Below, piece by piece: positions 6,280 to 61,060 of a stretch of DNA of 64,000 bases. Position 1 is the stretch's first letter; each line of letters starts with the position of its first letter. Origin of the DNA: Candidatus Moraniibacteriota bacterium (lineage in GTDB: Bacteria > Patescibacteriota > Minisyncoccia > Moranbacterales > UBA9337); assembly GCA_028695135.1 (NCBI GenBank), contig JAQVJM010000001.1, positions 13,718-77,717 on the forward strand. The letters are read 5' to 3'. A model generated the notes under the pieces. The model saw only the letters and a program-made list of their open reading frames with translations. It had not been told where the DNA came from and did no database searches. Position numbers and translations under genes: made by a program.

Positions 6280-6906
6280 ATGAAAATAGCAGTTTATAAT
6301 TTGGAAGGAAAAAAACTGAAAGATATGGAATTATCTGAAGATGTTTTTGGTGTTGAAAAAAATGAATTTCTTTTGCACCAGGTTTATGTAGCTAAAAAAG
6401 CCAACCGGAGAAAGCCGATTGCGCATACCAAAAACAGAGGAGAGGTGGCAGGCTCAGGAATAAAGCCCTGGAGACAGAAAGGGACCGGCAGAGCGAGAGT
6501 GGGATCAGTAAGAACTCCGGTTTGGAAAGGCGGAGGAATAGTTTTCGGACCGACCAAAGAAAGAAATTTCAGCAAGAAAGTCAACAATAGGGCCAATCGA
6601 AAAGCCATAAAGATGGCTCTCAGTGAGAAAGCGAAAAAAGGCAATATGATCGTGGTCGACAGTTTCAAGCTAAAGGAGAAAAAGACCAAAGAATTTGCCA
6701 AAGGAATGGATAATCTGAAATTGAAAGGAAAAATTTTACTGAGTCTGGGAGAAAAGGAAAAGGATGCGTATCTGTATTCAAGAAACATAAAAAACATGAA
6801 ATGCATCCCCGCAAAGATTATAAACGTGATGGATTTGCTCGATTATTCAAAATTACTGATCAGCGAGGACTCGATCAAATACCTGGAAAAAAAGTATAAT
6901 AGATAA
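6280..6906 (+). CDS. rplD: 50S ribosomal protein L4
   Basis: 208 aa; ...KPWRQKGTGRARVGSVRTPVWKGGGIVFGP canonical L4 motif. Confidence 0.93.
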   Translation: MKIAVYNLEGKKLKDMELSEDVFGVEKNEFLLHQVYVAKKANRRKPIAHTKNRGEVAGSGIKPWRQKGTGRARVGSVRTPVWKGGGIVFGPTKERNFSKKVNNRANRKAIKMALSEKAKKGNMIVVDSFKLKEKKTKEFAKGMDNLKLKGKILLSLGEKEKDAYLYSRNIKNMKCIPAKIINVMDLLDYSKLLISEDSIKYLEKKYNR

Positions 6907-15734: not shown

Positions 15735-15746
15735 AAATACGAAATT

Positions 15747-15785
15747 AAACGGCCAAATCAATTAATTTAATTGATTTGGCCGTTT
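15747..15785. repeat. 39-bp perfect palindrome (19-bp arms, 1-nt centre): aaacggccaaatcaattaa-t-ttaattgatttggccgttt
   Basis: Exact reverse-complement arms read directly from the sequence; sits between the rplO terminator and the promoter of the next gene. Confidence 0.85.
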
Positions 15786-15803
15786 AATTCCGTCTTTTTC
15801 CGG

Positions 15804-38775: not shown

Positions 38776-40962
38776 TCATAGCCTTTTTCTTTTTAAAAGA
38801 AGAGAATTGGTCACTACTGAAACACTGCTCATTGCCATTGCCAAGCCGGCGAATTCCGCTTGCAATAAGCCGAAAGCGGCTATAGGGATTCCGATACTGT
38901 TATAAAAGAGTGCCCAGAAAAGATTTTGCTTAATTTTTTGCATAGTTTCCTTGCTGAGTTTTATTGACTTGGCGACATCTCTGGCATCATTTTTAACCAA
39001 CACGATATTTCCGGATTCGATTGCAATATCGGCTCCTTTGCCCATAGCAATTCCTACATCAGCTTGGGCCAGAGCGGGTGCGTCGTTTATGCCGTCTCCG
39101 ACCATGGCTACTATGGAAGTTTTTTGAATTTCCTTTATTTTTGATACTTTCTCTTCCGGAAGCACTTCGGAAATTACTCTTTTAATTTCCAGTTTCCTTC
39201 CGATAGCTTCAGCGGTGCGCCTGTTATCTCCGGTAAGCATCACGGATTCTATTCCCATGGCAGACAGTATTTTAATTGCGCTCTTGCTGCTTTCCTTGAT
39301 CTGATCACTTATCGCTATTATGCCGATGATATTGCCATTTTCGGCGCACAGCACTGCCGTCTTCCCTTCTTCTTCAAGGGATAATTTTTTCCCTTTGATA
39401 TTTTCAGATATGTCAATTGAATTATCCCGCATGAAATTTTCCGTTCCGATCAGTATTTTATTGTCGTTCAAAAATCCCTCTATGCCATGTCCCGGAGATG
39501 TTCTAAATCCCTGGGCATTTTCTAAGGATAATTTTTTTTCTTTGGCTTTATTTATAATAGCCTCTGCAAGCGGATGCTCGGATCTATTTTCTATAGAAGC
39601 TGATTTTCTGAGAATATTTTCTTCAGAATAACCTTCGAAAGATATGATATCAACTACCTCAGGGAAGCCTTTGGTCAGGGTACCGGTTTTATCGAAAACA
39701 ACGGTTTTGATTTTATTGGATATTTCAAGAGTTGCGCCATCGCGGATCAAAATTCCATTTTCAGCTCCTTTGCCAGTTCCGACAATGATGGCAGTGGGGG
39801 TGGCTAGTCCGAGAGCGCAAGGACATGCGATTACAAGAACTGCTGTAAAGGTGAGAAGGGCGGTTACAAAACTTGATCCTATAAAGAAGTACCAGACGAT
39901 AAAAGTTATAATCGCGATTACAATAACCGCCGGCACGAAATAGCCGGATATCTTATCTGCATATTTTTGGATAGGGGCTTTGGATCCTTGAGCTTCCTCG
40001 ACAAACTTGATAATTTGAGAAAGAATCGTATCTTTTCCAACCTTGGTGACCTCAAATTTAAAAGACCCGGTCTTATTTATCGTAGCGCCTATGACCGAAT
40101 CTCCGGCTTTTTTTTCCACAGGAATACTTTCTCCGGAGATCATAGATTCATCAATGCTTGAATGGCCTTCGATTATTTTTCCGTCCGCAGGTATTTTTTC
40201 TCCTGGGCGGACTATTACCATATCTCCCGGAGCGACCTCATCTAGCGGAATATCTATTTCTTCCCCATCTTTTTCTACCCGGGCGGTTTTGGCCTGAAGT
40301 CCCATTAGCTTTTTGATAGCGTCTCCCGCTTTTCCTTTGGCGCGAGCTTCAAGCCACTTCCCCAAAACTACGAAAGTAATAAGCAGAGCCGATGTCTCAT
40401 AGAAAACCTCTCCTTCGATCAAATAAGTCGTAGCTAAACTATAAAAGTAGGCGGCGCTTGTTCCGACAGCGATAAGGGTATCCATATTGGCGGTCTTATT
40501 CCTTAGTCCTATCCAGGTTCCTTTGTAAAATCGAAGGCCGATATAGAATTGGACTATCCCGGCAAGGACTGATTGCAAAACCTTGCTTTCAAATGACATA
40601 TTGTGAAAAATCATAGTCAAAAGAAGAATGGGAAATGATAAAAACAGACTGATTATGAACGTCAGCCTTTCTTTTTTTATTTCCGTTTCTGAACTTTTTG
40701 CGTGATGTGCATGGTTATGATCGCTTTCGGGATAAGCTTCATATCCTGCTTTCTTGACAGCCGATAAGACGGCTTTTGAATCTCTCTCGTTATTATATTC
40801 AACTGAAAGTTTTTCCGAAGCAAGATTCACATCGGCTTTCTTTATTTGAGGAAGCTTTTTCAGCTTATCTTCTATGGTAAAAACGCAGGAAGCGCAATGC
40901 ATTCCTTTTATAGAAAAAACTTCTTTGTCCTTCTTGTTTTTCATGATGATGTCTTTTGTCAT
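38776..40962 (-). CDS. copA: Copper-translocating P1B-type ATPase
   Basis: N-terminal HMA (GMHCASCV), CPC motif ([11 protein letters not shown]), DKTGTLT phosphorylation site, GDGINDAP; 728 aa. Confidence 0.93.
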
Positions 40963-41065
40963 AAGCGGGCAATTCTTATCGGAAGAATTATTATTGGAAA
41001 ATAATCCTGTTTTATTTATGTTTAGTTATACAATTACGCGGTTGCGGGATTATGCAACTATTAAA

Positions 41066-41106
41066 CCTTTGCCTACAACGGTGTTGGGTGCCCGTTGCAG
41101 GCAAAG
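41066..41106 (-). repeat. Hairpin 1 of three tandem covarying hairpins (conserved core caacggtgttgggtgcccgttgc)
   Basis: cctttgcctacaacgg-tgttgggtg-cccgttgcaggcaaag; the A.C mismatch on + becomes a G.U wobble on the minus-strand transcript. Confidence 0.7.
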
Positions 41107-41121
41107 ATTTAATATTATTCC

Positions 41122-41165
41122 GTCCCTATCTGCAACGGTGTTGGGTGCCCGTTGCAGATAGGGAC
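41122..41165 (-). repeat. Hairpin 2 of three tandem covarying hairpins (perfect 17-bp stem)
   Basis: gtccctatctgcaacgg-tgttgggtgc-ccgttgcagatagggac; the outer stem sequence differs from hairpins 1 and 3 but is fully compensated. Confidence 0.75.
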
Positions 41166-41238
41166 GTCTGATTTCAATAAGTCATTTTATATAACCAGAC
41201 GTCTTTTGTCTCCGAATAAAATGCTTATTATCAGATCC

Positions 41239-41274
41239 TTGCCTACAACGGTGTTGGGTGCCCGTTGCAGGCAG
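41239..41274 (-). repeat. Hairpin 3 of three tandem covarying hairpins
   Basis: ttgcctacaacgg-tgttgggtgc-ccgttgcaggcag; begins ~16 nt after the stop codon of the upstream (minus-strand) gene. Confidence 0.7.
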
Positions 41275-41289
41275 AAATCCGATAATTTT

Positions 41290-42687
41290 TTATTCGACGA
41301 CCTCTATGGTTCCCGAGACCATTCCCATCCAACAGCTGAATTTGAACTTTCCCGCCTGGGTTGGCAAGAACTCTTTTATGCTGGTTTCTCCCGGAGTCAG
41401 ATTTATCTGTCCGTTGAACAAATTTCTGGATATTATTGCGTTTGTGCATCCGCTGGTTCCCCTGTCTTCAATCCGCCATTCAACCGGTATGTTTTTCCTG
41501 ACTTTTATATAATTGGGAGAATATCCGGAAGATGTGGCTGTTGTTTTGACTATCTGCTTCCCGTTTTCTATCAAAGGGAGTCCATCTATATCTCTCAGGG
41601 CGCTCTTGCCTGATTTCTGGCTTAATCCCGGCTCTTCCTTTTGATTTTTTGCCAGATCGCTTGCGCTTGTAAATCCTAAAGCATTCAATTGGGAATTTAT
41701 ATTGAATAAAGCGAAAAAAACTATCAGAATTCCGGCGGTTTTTGAAAAAATCAAAGCGGTATTGTGGCTGCTTATAAATTTTACGCTGGTCAGTCCTATG
41801 AGGAGAAGGGAAGGGAGCGTGCCGATGGCGAACATGAGCATGATAAGGCCTCCTGATATGAAACTTCCCGATAGCAGAGCGAATCCTTGAGCGGTTATGG
41901 TGAATCCGCAAGGCAGAAAAAAAGTCAGCGCGCCTATGAGAAAGGGGGATCTATTTTTTTTGTTCTGCGGAGCGCCGAAAATTTTATCTGTTGCGGATTT
42001 GGGCAGAGCGATCCTTATTTTTTTAAGCTGTTTGATCCCGATCATTTGAAATCCGATGATTAACATTGCCGCTGAAACGATGAAGACCAGTATTGACGAA
42101 AAAGCGGGCGAAAGGGTGAATTTTTCTCCTATCGATCCAAGCATTCCTCCCAATAAAGCATAAGAAAACAATCTTCCGGAGTTGAATAATATTTGGGGCC
42201 TGATCCTTCTGAAATATTTTTTTTCATCTGAATAATCCTCGTCCCATTTCTTCGACAAGGAAAGGACTAGTCCTCCTACCAGAGCCGCGCAGCTGGATAT
42301 GCCGGCAACCAGCCCGAGAAACAGAAAGGCTGTCAAAGGAGATGCGGGGGACGCTTGCGCGATATTTGTGATTTCCGATTTATCCAGCAGGAAAAAAGCT
42401 GTTATCAATAAGGCGGAAATCAAAAAACTGATCGCAGTGCCTGAGGATTTTCCTTCTGTGCCAGGCTTATTTTCCGATAATCTGTAGTTGTTATTCCTCA
42501 AGGCCTTGTTAATTTCCGGAATGTTTATTTTATTTTTATATTGAATGGTGACTGAATTTTTTTTCTGTGAAACATCGGCAGAGCAAATATTGGGGATCTT
42601 TTCAAGCTCGTTCTTTATGATCAGTTCGCAGGAAGAACAACGCATCCCATCAATATATAATATTTTAGTTTTCATCGTTTGCCGCAA
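41290..42687 (-). CDS. HMA-domain / DsbD-like transmembrane / C-terminal cupredoxin-like fusion protein (putative copper handling)
   Basis: N-terminal MRCSSCE HMA motif; membrane core with GISSCAAL and FFLPCGFT Cys-containing helices; C-terminal beta-rich domain ending FKFSCWMGMVSGTIEV. Confidence 0.5.
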   Translation of the reverse strand: MRQTMKTKILYIDGMRCSSCELIIKNELEKIPNICSADVSQKKNSVTIQYKNKINIPEINKALRNNNYRLSENKPGTEGKSSGTAISFLISALLITAFFLLDKSEITNIAQASPASPLTAFLFLGLVAGISSCAALVGGLVLSLSKKWDEDYSDEKKYFRRIRPQILFNSGRLFSYALLGGMLGSIGEKFTLSPAFSSILVFIVSAAMLIIGFQMIGIKQLKKIRIALPKSATDKIFGAPQNKKNRSPFLIGALTFFLPCGFTITAQGFALLSGSFISGGLIMLMFAIGTLPSLLLIGLTSVKFISSHNTALIFSKTAGILIVFFALFNINSQLNALGFTSASDLAKNQKEEPGLSQKSGKSALRDIDGLPLIENGKQIVKTTATSSGYSPNYIKVRKNIPVEWRIEDRGTSGCTNAIISRNLFNGQINLTPGETSIKEFLPTQAGKFKFSCWMGMVSGTIEVVE

Positions 42688-42950
42688 ATCCTTATTACTT
42701 TTAAAAGTTCCTTTATTTTTTCTTTCTTGACTCTTTTGCCGGGTTTATCGATAGCTTCCAAGAAACAACCGTTAAGATGACCTTCCATGATCATCCGGTG
42801 AGCCGATTTTAACAGTCCGATTACGGCCAAGTTCTGAGTCATTATGTCGACGCAGTATCTATCTTCTTCTATCATCTTGATTATATTGTTTATCTGCCCG
42901 CGCGCTTTTTTAAAGCTGACAAGGGACTGTTTCTTTTTTGCGTTAGCCAT
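42672..42950 (-). CDS. csoR: CsoR/RcnR-family metal-sensing transcriptional repressor
   Basis: 92 aa; ...ARGQINNIIKMIEEDRYCVDIMTQ...H...EGHLNGC matches DUF156/CsoR architecture (Cys/His ligands); overlaps the downstream gene by 16 nt. Confidence 0.65.
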   Translation of the reverse strand: MANAKKKQSLVSFKKARGQINNIIKMIEEDRYCVDIMTQNLAVIGLLKSAHRMIMEGHLNGCFLEAIDKPGKRVKKEKIKELLKVIRICGKR

Positions 42951-42974
42951 TTGTTTGCTTATTTAATTGTTTAC

Positions 42975-43032
42975 CCAACATCCCCCCCTGGGGGTTGTGT
43001 GATGATAATATCATAATAAAAATTTTTGTCAA
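42975..43032 (-). promoter_or_regulatory. csoR promoter (minus strand TTGACA-16-TATTAT) with GC-rich pseudo-palindromic operator aacccccagggggggatgtt
   Basis: RC of 43027-43032 = TTGACA; RC of 43005-43010 = TATTAT; palindrome 42975-42998 lies between the -10 box and the start codon. Confidence 0.55.
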
Positions 43033-43132: not shown

Positions 43133-43525
43133 ATGGATGAAAAAAATAAGAAAATAATAATTGTTGCCGAAGATCAGCCTGAAGAGCTAAGCGCTCTTTC
43201 TGACAAATTGACTAACAGCGGTTTTGAAGTTGTGGGAACTTCCGATGGTGAAAAGTGTCTGGAGGCCGTTAAAAAAAACAGTCCGGATCTGATATTGCTG
43301 GATCTAGTAATGCCGAGAATGGGCGGCTTGGCGGTTCTCGAAGAATTAAAAAAAGATGAAAATCATAGATTTATTCCCGTTATCGTGCTTACCAATCTTG
43401 ACAGTCTGGGCGATATCCAAAAAGTCGCCGAAAGAGGAGTTCGCGACTATCTGATAAAAAGCGATTGGGATCTTGACGGGATAGTAGGGAAAATAAATGA
43501 TATATTAGGAACAAAGGAAAAATAA
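43133..43525 (+). CDS. Stand-alone response regulator receiver (REC) domain protein
   Basis: 130 aa, ...DLILLDLVMPRMGG...VIVLT...K CheY-like; no output domain and no adjacent kinase. Confidence 0.7.
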   Translation: MDEKNKKIIIVAEDQPEELSALSDKLTNSGFEVVGTSDGEKCLEAVKKNSPDLILLDLVMPRMGGLAVLEELKKDENHRFIPVIVLTNLDSLGDIQKVAERGVRDYLIKSDWDLDGIVGKINDILGTKEK

Positions 43526-43578
43526 ATATTATTTTTTCCTTTGTATTAATTAACGGGTAAATTCAATATTTTAAAATT

Positions 43579-44631
43579 ATGGAAAAAATCCTTCTGATGA
43601 TCCTCTTGGCGGCCATAGGGATCGTAATTTTTCTCCTGACGAAAAAGAAAGATTCGGGAGACAGCGATAAAATCGCGGCCATGATGGAAAGACTCTCGAC
43701 TCTTTCCGAAGAGAACAAGGATTTGCGCAATCTTGTGGATTGCAAGTTGTCTGAAACCCATAAGGCCAGCGCCCAAACTATCAAGGATATACACAGCCAG
43801 TCTGTCAGGCAGATCGAAAGCATAACCGAAAAATTGGCGAAATTAGAAAACACCAATAAGCAGGTAGTCGGCTTTTCCGAGCAGTTGAAAAATCTTCAGG
43901 ACATATTGCAGAATTCCAAGCAAAGAGGCGCGCTGGGCGAATATTTTTTGGAAACCACGATAAAGAATGTTTTGCCTCCGGAAAGCTACGAGTTCCAGTA
44001 TCCTTTTAAGGATGGATCGATCGTGGATGCTGTTATAAAATTGCCGGACGGGATAGTCCCAGTTGATTCTAAGTTCTCATTGGAAAATTACAACAAGATA
44101 TTGTCAGAGAAAGAGCCTCAACAGAAGAAAGAGTTAGAAAGGAAATTTAAGGAAGATCTTAAAAACAGAATAATGGAAACCAGCAAATACATAAAACCGA
44201 AAGAGGGAACCATGGATTTTGCCTTCATGTTTATCCCCTCAGAAGGAATATACTATGATCTGCTCATCTCAAAAATAGGAGTAGTCGACTCTAAAAATTT
44301 TTTGGAATACGCTTTTCGAGATAAAAAAGTCATAATTGTTTCTCCGACTACCCTACATGCCTATTTGCAGACCGTTATGCAAGGATTAAAATCTCTCAAG
44401 ATTGAGAAACAGGCGATGGAAATAGGAAAAAGAGTTGAAAATTTGCAAAGACATATAATAAAATATTCAACTTATCACCAAAAACTGGGAAATTCGATAT
44501 CTACCGTGGTCAATCATTACAACGAAACCAGCAAATCATTAAAGCAAGTGTCCAATGACACTATTAAAATTACCGAAGCGGGAGACGTTATCGAGGTGGA
44601 AGCCCTAGAGCGTCCGAAAATGGAAGATTAG
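43579..44631 (+). CDS. rmuC: DNA recombination protein RmuC homolog
   Basis: N-terminal TM, coiled coil, then ...GALGEYFLETTIKNVLP...YEFQY...DAVIKLPDG..VPVDSKF resembling the RmuC core. Confidence 0.6.
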   Translation: MEKILLMILLAAIGIVIFLLTKKKDSGDSDKIAAMMERLSTLSEENKDLRNLVDCKLSETHKASAQTIKDIHSQSVRQIESITEKLAKLENTNKQVVGFSEQLKNLQDILQNSKQRGALGEYFLETTIKNVLPPESYEFQYPFKDGSIVDAVIKLPDGIVPVDSKFSLENYNKILSEKEPQQKKELERKFKEDLKNRIMETSKYIKPKEGTMDFAFMFIPSEGIYYDLLISKIGVVDSKNFLEYAFRDKKVIIVSPTTLHAYLQTVMQGLKSLKIEKQAMEIGKRVENLQRHIIKYSTYHQKLGNSISTVVNHYNETSKSLKQVSNDTIKITEAGDVIEVEALERPKMED

Positions 44632-44697
44632 ATATATTATTGAAATATTTAATCTTCTTTGTTATTCTTAAAATCGTTAAGATTAAGGTTTAAGATA

Positions 44698-52783: not shown

Positions 52784-53824
52784 ATGTTGAAAATTTTTTT
52801 AAAATCAATTGCGGTAGCCGTTTCAGCGATAACCGTTGCAACAATTATTTTTTTTATATATTTCAATCTCCCGACAGAAAACATTATTGAGAAGGCCGAT
52901 ATCGGAGTCACATTTTCGTTGAGGTATTCTCAGGATATAGGATTGGATTGGAAAGAAAATTATCTGGCGATGCTTGATGATTTGAAGATCAAAAAAATAA
53001 GAATTCCCGTTTATTGGGATCTCGTAGAAAAAGAGAAAGACCAATATGATTTTTCCGATATTGACTGGCAGTTGGAAGAAGCGCAAAAGAGAGGGGCGGA
53101 AATAATTTTAGTTGTAGGGCAGAAAGTTCCCAGATGGCCGGAATGCCACATTCCCAGATGGATAGGGGAAAATTCAAGCGAGGTCAGAGAAAATGAGAAG
53201 CTCAAAGATGAAGAAATATTGGAATTTGTAGGAGATGTCGTTAAGAGGTACAAAAATCATGAAGCAATCAAATATTGGCAGGTGGAGAATGAGCCTTTCT
53301 TGGCATTCGGAGATTGCTCCAGGCCGACAATCGGGGCAGAAATGCTGGACAAAGAGATTGCCGTGGTCAAGTCGACTGATTCAAGCAGGCAGGTAATCGT
53401 GACTGATAGCGGAGAATTAAGCACTTGGATTCCGGCAGCCAAAAGAGCCGACGTTTTTGGTACTACGATGTATCGCAATGTTTATAAGGAAGGATGGGGA
53501 TATTATGTCTATCCGATCGGTCCCAGATTTTTCCTCACAAAGAGATGGTTCATAGAAAAATTTGCCGGTCAGGAAGATGCGATAGTCATAGAGCTTCAAG
53601 GAGAACCGTGGGTGGCGGGCTGGACTACCAATCAGCCCCTGGAAGAGCAGTTTAAATCAATGAATGCCGAAAAGCTTTCCGAAAATATTTTATACGCGCA
53701 AAAGTCCGGTTTTGATACCATCTATATTTGGGGAGTGGAGTGGTGGTATTGGCTTAAGACGGAGAAAGATCTTCCTGAAATATGGAATATGATGAAAGGA
53801 ATTATAAATAAAAATCAAAAATGA
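52784..53824 (+). CDS. Putative TIM-barrel glycoside hydrolase (GH5/GH42-like), membrane-anchored
   Basis: N-terminal TM; ...KIRIPVYWDLVEKEKDQYDF...; NEP-type catalytic acid (VENEPFLAF); second E (IELQGEPW). Confidence 0.4.
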   Translation: MLKIFLKSIAVAVSAITVATIIFFIYFNLPTENIIEKADIGVTFSLRYSQDIGLDWKENYLAMLDDLKIKKIRIPVYWDLVEKEKDQYDFSDIDWQLEEAQKRGAEIILVVGQKVPRWPECHIPRWIGENSSEVRENEKLKDEEILEFVGDVVKRYKNHEAIKYWQVENEPFLAFGDCSRPTIGAEMLDKEIAVVKSTDSSRQVIVTDSGELSTWIPAAKRADVFGTTMYRNVYKEGWGYYVYPIGPRFFLTKRWFIEKFAGQEDAIVIELQGEPWVAGWTTNQPLEEQFKSMNAEKLSENILYAQKSGFDTIYIWGVEWWYWLKTEKDLPEIWNMMKGIINKNQK

Positions 53825-54960
53825 AATCCGAGAAAAACAAAAAATTATTCAGTGCCGTTCTGGTGATAATTTCTTTCGCGCTGGCCTTTTGCGGGCTTGC
53901 TTACGTTTTTGGTAATTATGCCGGAGCGTTCCAGACAAAAATATGGCTGGAAAAAAATGGGGAGGTTGATTTTGACGAGACGGTTATCATGAGATTTTCC
54001 GACAGCATGATGACTAATAATTTTCAAGAATTCATAGAAATTATCCCGGCGCAAAGAGCTGATTACAGATGGGAAGATTCCAATAAAACTTTGAAGATAA
54101 CTCCGCAAAAAAATTGGGAGTTGGGAAAAAGATATACGGTAAAAATTAATGGCCTGAAGAACATATTTTTTGTAAGCAATAATAAGGAATTTTCCTTCAG
54201 TACTGTCAGTTATCCTGAAATAAAGGATTTTTATCCGGAAAACGGCGCCAAAGAAATAATAATAGACATTGAAAGTCCGGGAAAAATATATTTTGATAAA
54301 ACTCTAAAGGATTTTAATTTAAAGATAAAAGTTTTTCCGGAAAAAAAGCTGGCCTACAATATCAATGAAGCAAAAAACTCGATCTTCTTTACTTTTAGGG
54401 ATGGATATGAGAGAGGCCAGGAATATAAAATAGATATTTTCATAAAGCACAAGAAAGAAGATAAAAATGATTATAGGGACATATATTCCTCGTCTTTTCA
54501 AACGGAATCGCCCCCTCCGGAGGAGTGGGGAGATGATTTTGCCTCAAGGATAGAAAAAGCCAAGAAATTCACCAAGGCTAGGATGGAGCAGGGGAAATAT
54601 ATAGACATAAATTTAAACATACAGGTCTTGACCATATTTGAAAATGGAAGCATATTGGATTCTTTTCTCATTTCTTCCGGGAAAAGAGGAATGGAAACCC
54701 CTAAGGGGGAATTTAAGATAAGCAACAAACATCCTCGTCCCTGGTCTAGACAATACGGTCTTTTTATGCCATACTGGATGGCGATAGTTCCTTCTGGTAA
54801 ATTTGGAATTCACGAACTTCCGGAATGGCCGGGAGGCTATAAGGAAGGCCAGAATCATTTAGGCATTCCGGTTTCTCACGGATGCGTAAGATTAGGAGTG
54901 GGCGCAGCCAAAAAAGTCTATGATTGGGCGGAAATAGGAACACCTGTTGTAATTTATTGA
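53821..54960 (+). CDS. L,D-transpeptidase (YkuD family) with N-terminal TM and Ig-like domains
   Basis: C-terminal ...FGIHELPEW...PVSHGCVRLGV... catalytic His/Cys motif. Confidence 0.75.
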   Translation: MKSEKNKKLFSAVLVIISFALAFCGLAYVFGNYAGAFQTKIWLEKNGEVDFDETVIMRFSDSMMTNNFQEFIEIIPAQRADYRWEDSNKTLKITPQKNWELGKRYTVKINGLKNIFFVSNNKEFSFSTVSYPEIKDFYPENGAKEIIIDIESPGKIYFDKTLKDFNLKIKVFPEKKLAYNINEAKNSIFFTFRDGYERGQEYKIDIFIKHKKEDKNDYRDIYSSSFQTESPPPEEWGDDFASRIEKAKKFTKARMEQGKYIDINLNIQVLTIFENGSILDSFLISSGKRGMETPKGEFKISNKHPRPWSRQYGLFMPYWMAIVPSGKFGIHELPEWPGGYKEGQNHLGIPVSHGCVRLGVGAAKKVYDWAEIGTPVVIY

Positions 54961-61024: not shown

Positions 61025-61060
61025 CGTAGCATAATAATGCGGTCGCATTATTATGCTACG
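61025..61060. terminator. 16-bp perfect-stem hairpin between convergent lgt and comF (putative bidirectional terminator)
   Basis: cgtagcataataatgc-ggtc-gcattattatgctacg. Confidence 0.45.

Follow-up and report, generated by a model that had tools for sequence, protein, structure and literature searches.

The window considered here is a stretch of 64,000 nucleotides (nt) of contig JAQVJM010000001.1 (positions 13,718 to 77,717, forward strand) from the Candidatus Moraniibacteriota assembly GCA_028695135.1, and the element in question is a group of three stem-loops inside a copper-efflux operon. All three lie in the 327-nt non-coding spacer (40963-41289, minus strand) that separates a gene for an HMA-DsbD_2-cupredoxin fusion protein from copA. 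The first gene of the operon is csoR, for a metal-sensitive repressor (42672-42950, minus strand; PF02583), followed by the fusion gene (41290-42675, minus strand; called as 461 amino acids), whose ATG and the stop codon of csoR overlap (ATGA). The downstream cistron, copA (38776-40962, minus strand), encodes a Cu(I) P-type ATPase with HMA, E1-E2_ATPase and Hydrolase domains; a protein identical to it is named heavy metal translocating P-type ATPase, from Candidatus Moranbacteria, at NCBI. Ahead of csoR stands the operon promoter, a sigma-70-type TTGACA-16-TATTAT with the TG of an extended -10 element (43032-43005, minus strand; 11 of 12 positions matching), and directly after it a CsoR-type box, AACCCCCAGGGGGGGAT on the sense strand, whose C/G-run palindrome occupies 42982-42994 (minus strand), the whole arrangement spanning 42982-43032. 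An original prediction, made from the letters of the window, had placed csoR, the fusion gene and copA together on the minus strand, as found here, and had proposed that the hairpins between the last two form an RNA element of the polycistronic mRNA. The feature itself is real, and a function at the level of RNA is probable.

Each hairpin is built around a 23-nt core, CAACGGTGTTGGGTGCCCGTTGC on the plus strand, of which the window has three exact copies (at 41076, 41133 and 41246), the number originally claimed; with up to three mismatches allowed there is no additional core in the 64 kb, and shuffled sequences are expected to give none at all. The predicted hairpins are present, but the inverted repeats reach well beyond the outer stems that had been listed for them, each core being the apex of a far longer structure of 23, 18 or 24 pairs. 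In the minus-strand fold, hairpin 1, the copy closest to copA (41059-41114), has 23 pairs (21 Watson-Crick and two G.U); hairpin 2 (41121-41166) has 18, all Watson-Crick, with core and loop as in the others and a lower-stem sequence of its own; and hairpin 3 (41227-41286), the first to be transcribed, has 24 (four of them G.U) flanking one C.A mismatch. A 10-nt loop, GCACCCAACA, is common to all three. Hairpin 3 starts 4 nt past the fusion-gene stop codon; at the other end of the spacer, about 96 nt separate hairpin 1 from the copA ATG. The copies are irregularly spaced, at 57 and 113 nt. Fold z-scores are -8.5 to -11.2 for the individual hairpins and -13.4 for the whole spacer.

Hairpins 1 and 3 have 82% identity across 61 nt and the same proximal outer stem, ttgcct/aggcaa, while hairpin 2 has only the 27-nt apex in common with them and differs on both sides of the pair at four lower-stem positions. 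Because hairpins 1 and 3, as paralogues, share their proximal lower stem, the window holds two independent stem types, not three: the earlier claim of three covarying hairpins stands as far as the outer stems do differ and yet remain complementary, but has to be reduced by one in its count. The conserved part of the element is an apex of 29-30 nt, made up of a 9-bp upper stem and a C/A-rich loop of 10-11 nt, ACCCAACA; in the lower stem the sequence varies freely and pairing is kept. Three Logan contigs (L003, L004 and L098) begin within the hairpin 1 core, at their positions 1-25, so the repeat evidently breaks de Bruijn/k-mer assemblies, and copy numbers from short-read metagenome-assembled genomes (MAGs) could be unreliable elsewhere. 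Here the count of three is the same in four independent assemblies of the organism (ENA, two NCBI MAGs and JGI).

The sole close relative found is a Logan contig, L005 (SRR22388168), whose fusion protein and CopA are 63% and 74% identical to those of the window. Its gene order is that of the window, and its 236-nt fusion-copA spacer contains one sense-strand hairpin, ccgccuGUAAUGG-ACAACCCAACA-CCGUUGCaggcgg, which extends to 24 pairs with one mismatch and has hairpin 3 as its best alignment partner; the remainder of the spacer cannot be aligned to that of the window. A block of 14 nt, ACCCAACACCGTTG (ACCCAACACCGUUG), comprising the 3' half of the loop and the 3' arm, is identical across the four hairpins and two lineages. 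The upper stem in L005 has two C-to-U differences from the window, both giving U.G pairs, and the differences in its lower stem are compensatory. A strain variant of the window genome, L097, differs from it by 11 single-nucleotide polymorphisms in 10 kb, one of them in the spacer: a C-to-T change at 41106, converting a C-G pair of hairpin 1 to U.G. From these comparisons we infer that the ancestor of the window genome and L005 already had one hairpin in the fusion-copA spacer, and that it was triplicated in the window lineage. At present no deeper alignment can be made, since in the protein searches a single lineage has CopA identities in the interval from 100% down to about 67%.

Is the structure one of RNA or of DNA? 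Five sequences (the three window hairpins, the L097 variant and L005) were aligned over a 23-pair helix. On the sense strand 94.8% of the cells in this alignment are paired, 12 of them by G.U, as against 85.2%, with a single G.U cell, in the mirror helix of the antisense strand. Eleven of the 23 pairs have changed on both sides, none of 500 shuffles matches the observed pairing or the covariation score, and registers slid along the alignment are just 35-47% paired. With ancestry allowed for, independent wobble events number about nine for the sense strand and one for the antisense (binomial, one-sided p of about 0.01). An A.C mismatch on the plus strand that turns into G.U on the minus strand, adjoining the core in hairpins 1 and 3, had been noted in the original prediction; the observation is correct, and further wobble positions share the asymmetry.

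Folding energies are in keeping with this, at -34.8 kcal/mol sense versus -27.2 antisense for hairpin 1, -35.5 versus -25.6 for hairpin 3 and -37.3 versus -26.0 for the L005 hairpin: sense advantages of 7.6, 9.9 and 11.3 kcal/mol, respectively, in three of the four hairpins, the all-Watson-Crick hairpin 2 being nearly balanced (-36.6 versus -37.2). A covariance model built from the same five sequences, R1, gives sense-strand scores of 59-87 bits and antisense-strand scores of 31-45 (for the window, on the minus strand, 86.7 bits for hairpin 1, with 44.9 on the plus strand, 58.9 for hairpin 2 and 81.3 for hairpin 3). Composition or G-U drift does not explain the wobble bias, because the operon, on its sense strand, is rich in A and has about as much G as C, rather than being rich in G and U. 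The GC skew of the window suggests that the plus strand is the lagging-strand template, in which case single strands exposed during replication would favour the strand that pairs worse, a point to which little weight is attached. The proposal of an RNA element in the polycistronic mRNA is thus borne out to the extent that the structure is favoured on the transcribed strand and that the orthologue in L005 keeps the fold by compensatory and wobble changes; the roles suggested for it remain putative.

A second proposal was that the core is a palindromic DNA operator, CAACGG-N10-CCGTTG in three copies, bound by CsoR or by some other dimeric regulator. The core is indeed an inverted repeat of two 6-bp half-sites, exactly repeated and placed ahead of copA. 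A CsoR operator (approximately CCCCC-N1-3-GGGGG with A/T flanks) has C and G runs that the core lacks, however, and such a box stands upstream of csoR in both genomes: in L005 a strong promoter and the box CCCCCATAGGGGG are found solely in that position (layout 6756-6807, box at 6795), and neither the window spacer nor that of L005 has a CsoR box. The palindromes also run 12-17 bp past the core with differing sequences, which would be superfluous for an operator, and their mismatches are strand-biased. In L005 the left half-site reads TAATGG and the half-sites are 11 nt apart rather than 10, changes that an RNA would tolerate and a dimeric DNA-binding protein would not. Recognition of the core as double-stranded DNA is accordingly very improbable, and recognition by CsoR, as first suggested, unlikely on the same grounds; LexA-box, cop-box (TACAnnTGTA) and MerR-type operator patterns were ruled out by reading the sequence. 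The window has a second C-run/G-run palindrome, CCCCTAAGGGGG, at 54698-54709, within the open reading frame (ORF) at 53821-54960.

Another possibility is that the hairpins are terminators or attenuators without U-tracts, which would end the csoR-fusion transcript and leave copA to a promoter of its own in the spacer, for example at 41212-41184; hairpins 2 and 1 would then lie in the copA 5' untranslated region (UTR). In favour of this, hairpin 3 begins 4 nt behind the stop codon, and other gene ends in the window (15739-15793, 61025-61060, 43511-43544 and 44623-44657) have long hairpins, often without clear U-tracts. These four, with a fifth at 131-163, are long near-perfect palindromes with stems of 12-25 bp, each with its own unique sequence. 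Gene ends are the location of at least four of them, in most cases with no clear U-tract, and they may represent the usual terminator or 3'-end structure of this genome. The minus strand of the spacer has a single promoter-like site, the weak GAGACA-17-TAAAAT just mentioned (41212-41184; 9 of 12), which falls between hairpins 3 and 2; it is at background level, however, shuffles yielding about as many such sites (8 found in the scanned region, 6.2 expected), and the L005 spacer has none. As intrinsic terminators the hairpins have the stems but no U-tract (the tails are GGUUUAAUAG, GGAAUAAUAU and GGAUCUGAUA, and AAAAAAUUCU in L005), and a terminator scanner reports no site on the minus strand of the spacer. 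A copA transcribed from the spacer would moreover escape copper control, since the spacer has no CsoR box, and termination needs neither a conserved loop nor three copies. Taken together, these points make termination ahead of a separate copA promoter improbable.

The remaining known classes were also tried. Rfam 15 gives no matches in the whole window at gathering thresholds, and permissive searches return only generic hairpin matches to miRNA and snoRNA models, at 11-31 bits where the thresholds are 35-119. An integron attC site does not fit: the apex is conserved and not the base, CTACAAC/GTTGCAG departs from RYYYAAC/GTTRRRY, and the neighbours are a fixed cop operon. A switch that sequesters the ribosome-binding site of copA was rejected as well, the best duplex between the copA start and the spacer being -19.7 against -17.3 +/- 2.6 for shuffles, 39 of 200 of which are as good; in L005, 90 of 200 shuffles are at least as good. 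A leader-peptide attenuator was dismissed because the sense strand of the spacer has no credible leader peptide or small ORF.

Searched with R1, filters off, the window yields only the three hairpins, the flanking contig of about 17 kb adds no further copy (bringing the genome covered to about 81 kb), and 86 related loci (740 kb) yield the L005 hairpin only. No homologous hairpin was found, by regular expression or covariance model, in 80 loci with fusion homologues (at most 49% identity) or in five loci with CopA of 65-67% identity, and exact matches to a 22-nt core are absent from the GTDB species-representative genomes. A degenerate structured pattern gave 11 matches in JGI metagenome contigs, GC-rich, without outer stems and apparently due to chance in unrelated sequence, and none in IMG/VR. 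The gene pair itself is widespread, with fusion followed by copA in 64 of 80 representative loci; in about 22 loci the gap is roughly 0-60 nt, and a few loci have non-coding spacers with unrelated hairpins. The hairpin-bearing spacer is specific to the window lineage, L005 included.

Several of the other spacers have features of their own. In several Patescibacteria (L007, L027, L042, L044, L048, L080 and L081) the gap of 170-300 nt appears to encode a small CopZ-like protein with a GMHCxxC motif. In L085 (5363-5514; Candidatus Paceibacteria MAG, JBGPNL010000025.1) an unrelated hairpin begins 9 nt past the fusion-gene stop, and 14 of 14 nt of its 3' arm are complementary to the copA start-codon segment (duplex -36.8, shuffles -16.3 +/- 3.5, 0 of 200 as good), which makes it a candidate for a switch that acts by translational coupling or by sequestration. 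The cupredoxin-copA spacer of L100 (GCA_030599825.1; CopA 67% identical) has, at about 941-952, TGTAATGGACAA, equal to the 5' arm and loop start of L005; there is no matching 3' arm, and the sequence may be a decayed relic or chance, in a spacer with long-range pairings of its own.

A lineage-restricted distribution of this kind could also be that of a selfish or neutral palindromic repeat with no role in cop expression, either a low-copy relative of repetitive extragenic palindromes (REPs) or miniature inverted-repeat transposable elements (MITEs), or the product of local duplication or template switching. Some relatives have the two genes within about 60 nt of each other and no hairpin, the triplication is local and irregular in spacing, and assemblies break there. 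Like REPs and the bacterial interspersed mosaic elements (BIMEs) that they form, the hairpins are imperfect palindromes of tens of nt, clustered in transcribed intergenic sequence, and those numbered 1 and 3 have GTAG on the sense strand; hairpin 2 and L005, however, have GCAG, so that the motif is found in two of the four copies. Unlike REPs and BIMEs, the element has three copies at one locus, in one orientation and at a conserved orthologous site, and no REP-associated tyrosine transposase (RAYT) was seen in the sequence available; BIME clusters, as a general matter, do not keep to one orientation. The original prediction held that hundreds of copies at unrelated intergenic sites, without strand bias, would speak for a generic REP or MITE: there are no dispersed copies in the 81 kb of genome or the 740 kb of related loci, all three being in one spacer. 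The same syntenic position has been retained while the neighbouring proteins have fallen to 63-74% identity and the surrounding spacer has been randomised, and the wobble bias is strand-specific. A repeat without function is on this evidence unlikely.

The explanation that best accommodates these observations is that the hairpins are cis-acting stem-loops of the csoR/fusion/copA mRNA that act in its processing or stability, a reading to which a probability of roughly 45% is given. Since no strong promoter or CsoR box is found other than those ahead of csoR, and the hairpins have no U-tract, copA would be transcribed through them from the CsoR-controlled promoter. The helices of 18-24 bp, each at about -35 kcal/mol, would then govern processing or stability between the cistrons, as sites of RNase III-type cleavage, as exonuclease barriers, or as both, and the copA segment would in this way be made independent of the csoR-fusion segment in amount and lifetime. 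With lengths of 23, 18 and 24 pairs in the window (the last with one mismatch) and 24 in L005 (one mismatch), they can be set beside the double-stranded RNA class on which RNase III-type enzymes act, near-perfect helices of about two turns, roughly 20 bp or more. The invariant apex may in addition be read at the loop by a sequence-specific partner.

This kind of element is already known, and the present example of it is new. Hairpins that stabilise or process mRNA between cistrons include the REP hairpins of E. coli malE-malF and the intercistronic stem-loops of the Rhodobacter puf operon. The window element resembles these in consisting of long stable stem-loops, in tandem and without a U-tract, in a non-coding spacer of co-oriented cistrons, with the sense strand favoured; it differs in being confined to one locus and not dispersed, in the invariance of its apex among paralogues and orthologue, and in being known here from sequence alone. 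The nearest functional precedent documented is a stem-loop between cutF and cutO of R. capsulatus, for which a post-transcriptional effect on mRNA stability and copper response is reported (PMC8456105, citing Rademacher et al., 2012). It, too, lies in a spacer of a copper-homeostasis operon, but phylum, genes (cutFOG) and sequence are different, homology between the two is not to be expected, and it is a single stem-loop in a spacer of 40 bp, compared with three hairpins of 18-24 bp in 327 nt. In the literature searched for an equivalent element in the Candidate Phyla Radiation (CPR) or in cop operons, this was the only analogue found.

Several considerations weigh against a processing or stabilising role. 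Co-transcription, cleavage and stabilisation are all inferred. The covariation statistics are weak, coming from two lineages and four to five sequences, and the counts are not independent, hairpins 1 and 3 being paralogues and L097 a strain variant; related sequences are known, besides, to beat a shuffle control even without structure. G.T pairs likewise stabilise hairpins of single-stranded DNA, and a palindrome, even a perfect or nearly perfect one, can arise and be maintained while having no function. The negatives from the large collections are weak, because the JGI metagenome scan did not return L099 (Ga0172377_10010799), a contig known to have all three hairpins. Finally, stability leaves the invariant apex unexplained, as neither RNase III nor exonuclease barriers need a conserved loop.

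That last point leads to the main rival of a stability role, and the more novel of the two: a specific binding partner. Here the hairpins would be RNA operators, in which a trans-acting protein or RNA recognises the invariant apex (the ACCCAACA loop with the upper stem) and the variable lower stem serves only to present it. Copper or some other signal would then control the translation of copA or the lifetime of its mRNA, the three copies making this control cooperative or graded. The combination of an invariant apex with a covarying lower stem is typical of protein-binding hairpins, and the 14 nt kept identical across four hairpins, in a metal-homeostasis setting, suggest a partner that reads the loop. 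The R. capsulatus cutF-cutO element is copper-responsive by an unknown mechanism. By analogy only, the design recalls the iron-responsive element (IRE), likewise a hairpin of about 30 nt with an invariant apical loop and a paired lower stem free in sequence, present singly or in tandem in metal-homeostasis mRNAs; IREs are eukaryotic, are bound by iron regulatory proteins and have a CAGUGN loop and a C bulge, and binding or a metal response of the window element would be no more than an extension of that analogy.

On the other side, no protein emerged as a candidate for such binding, pairing with the start region of copA is not significant, and so small a sample cannot show the apex to be conserved beyond what two lineages would share by chance. 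A perfect 8-nt complement of the ACCCAACA loop, UGUUGGGU, does occur in the csoR 5' UTR (42973-42980, minus strand), overlapping the flank of the CsoR box; it is probably a coincidence, because it is not kept in L005, and loop pairing with that UTR was rejected on this account. Divergent from csoR and beside it, in the window (43133-43525, plus strand) as in L005 (6306-6674, minus strand), is a gene for a stand-alone response-regulator receiver protein without an output domain. It has no RNA-binding domain, and its association with the hairpins may mean nothing, since synteny is generally conserved here. Recognition of the apex by a partner is, all told, a possible but rather doubtful explanation, and its most specific form, in which copper-responsive, IRE-like reading of the apex would tune copA mRNA as a layer on top of CsoR control in a reduced CPR genome, is quite improbable.

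If the hairpins are mere stabilisers or neutral palindromes, they are an ordinary feature whose main practical effect is that short-read assemblies break at this locus. Post-transcriptional control within copper-efflux operons is poorly documented, and RNA-level regulation in Patescibacteria (CPR) is almost unknown. The three hairpins offer a small, clean test object for asking how such reduced genomes adjust the amount of a copper-handling membrane protein relative to that of the efflux pump.

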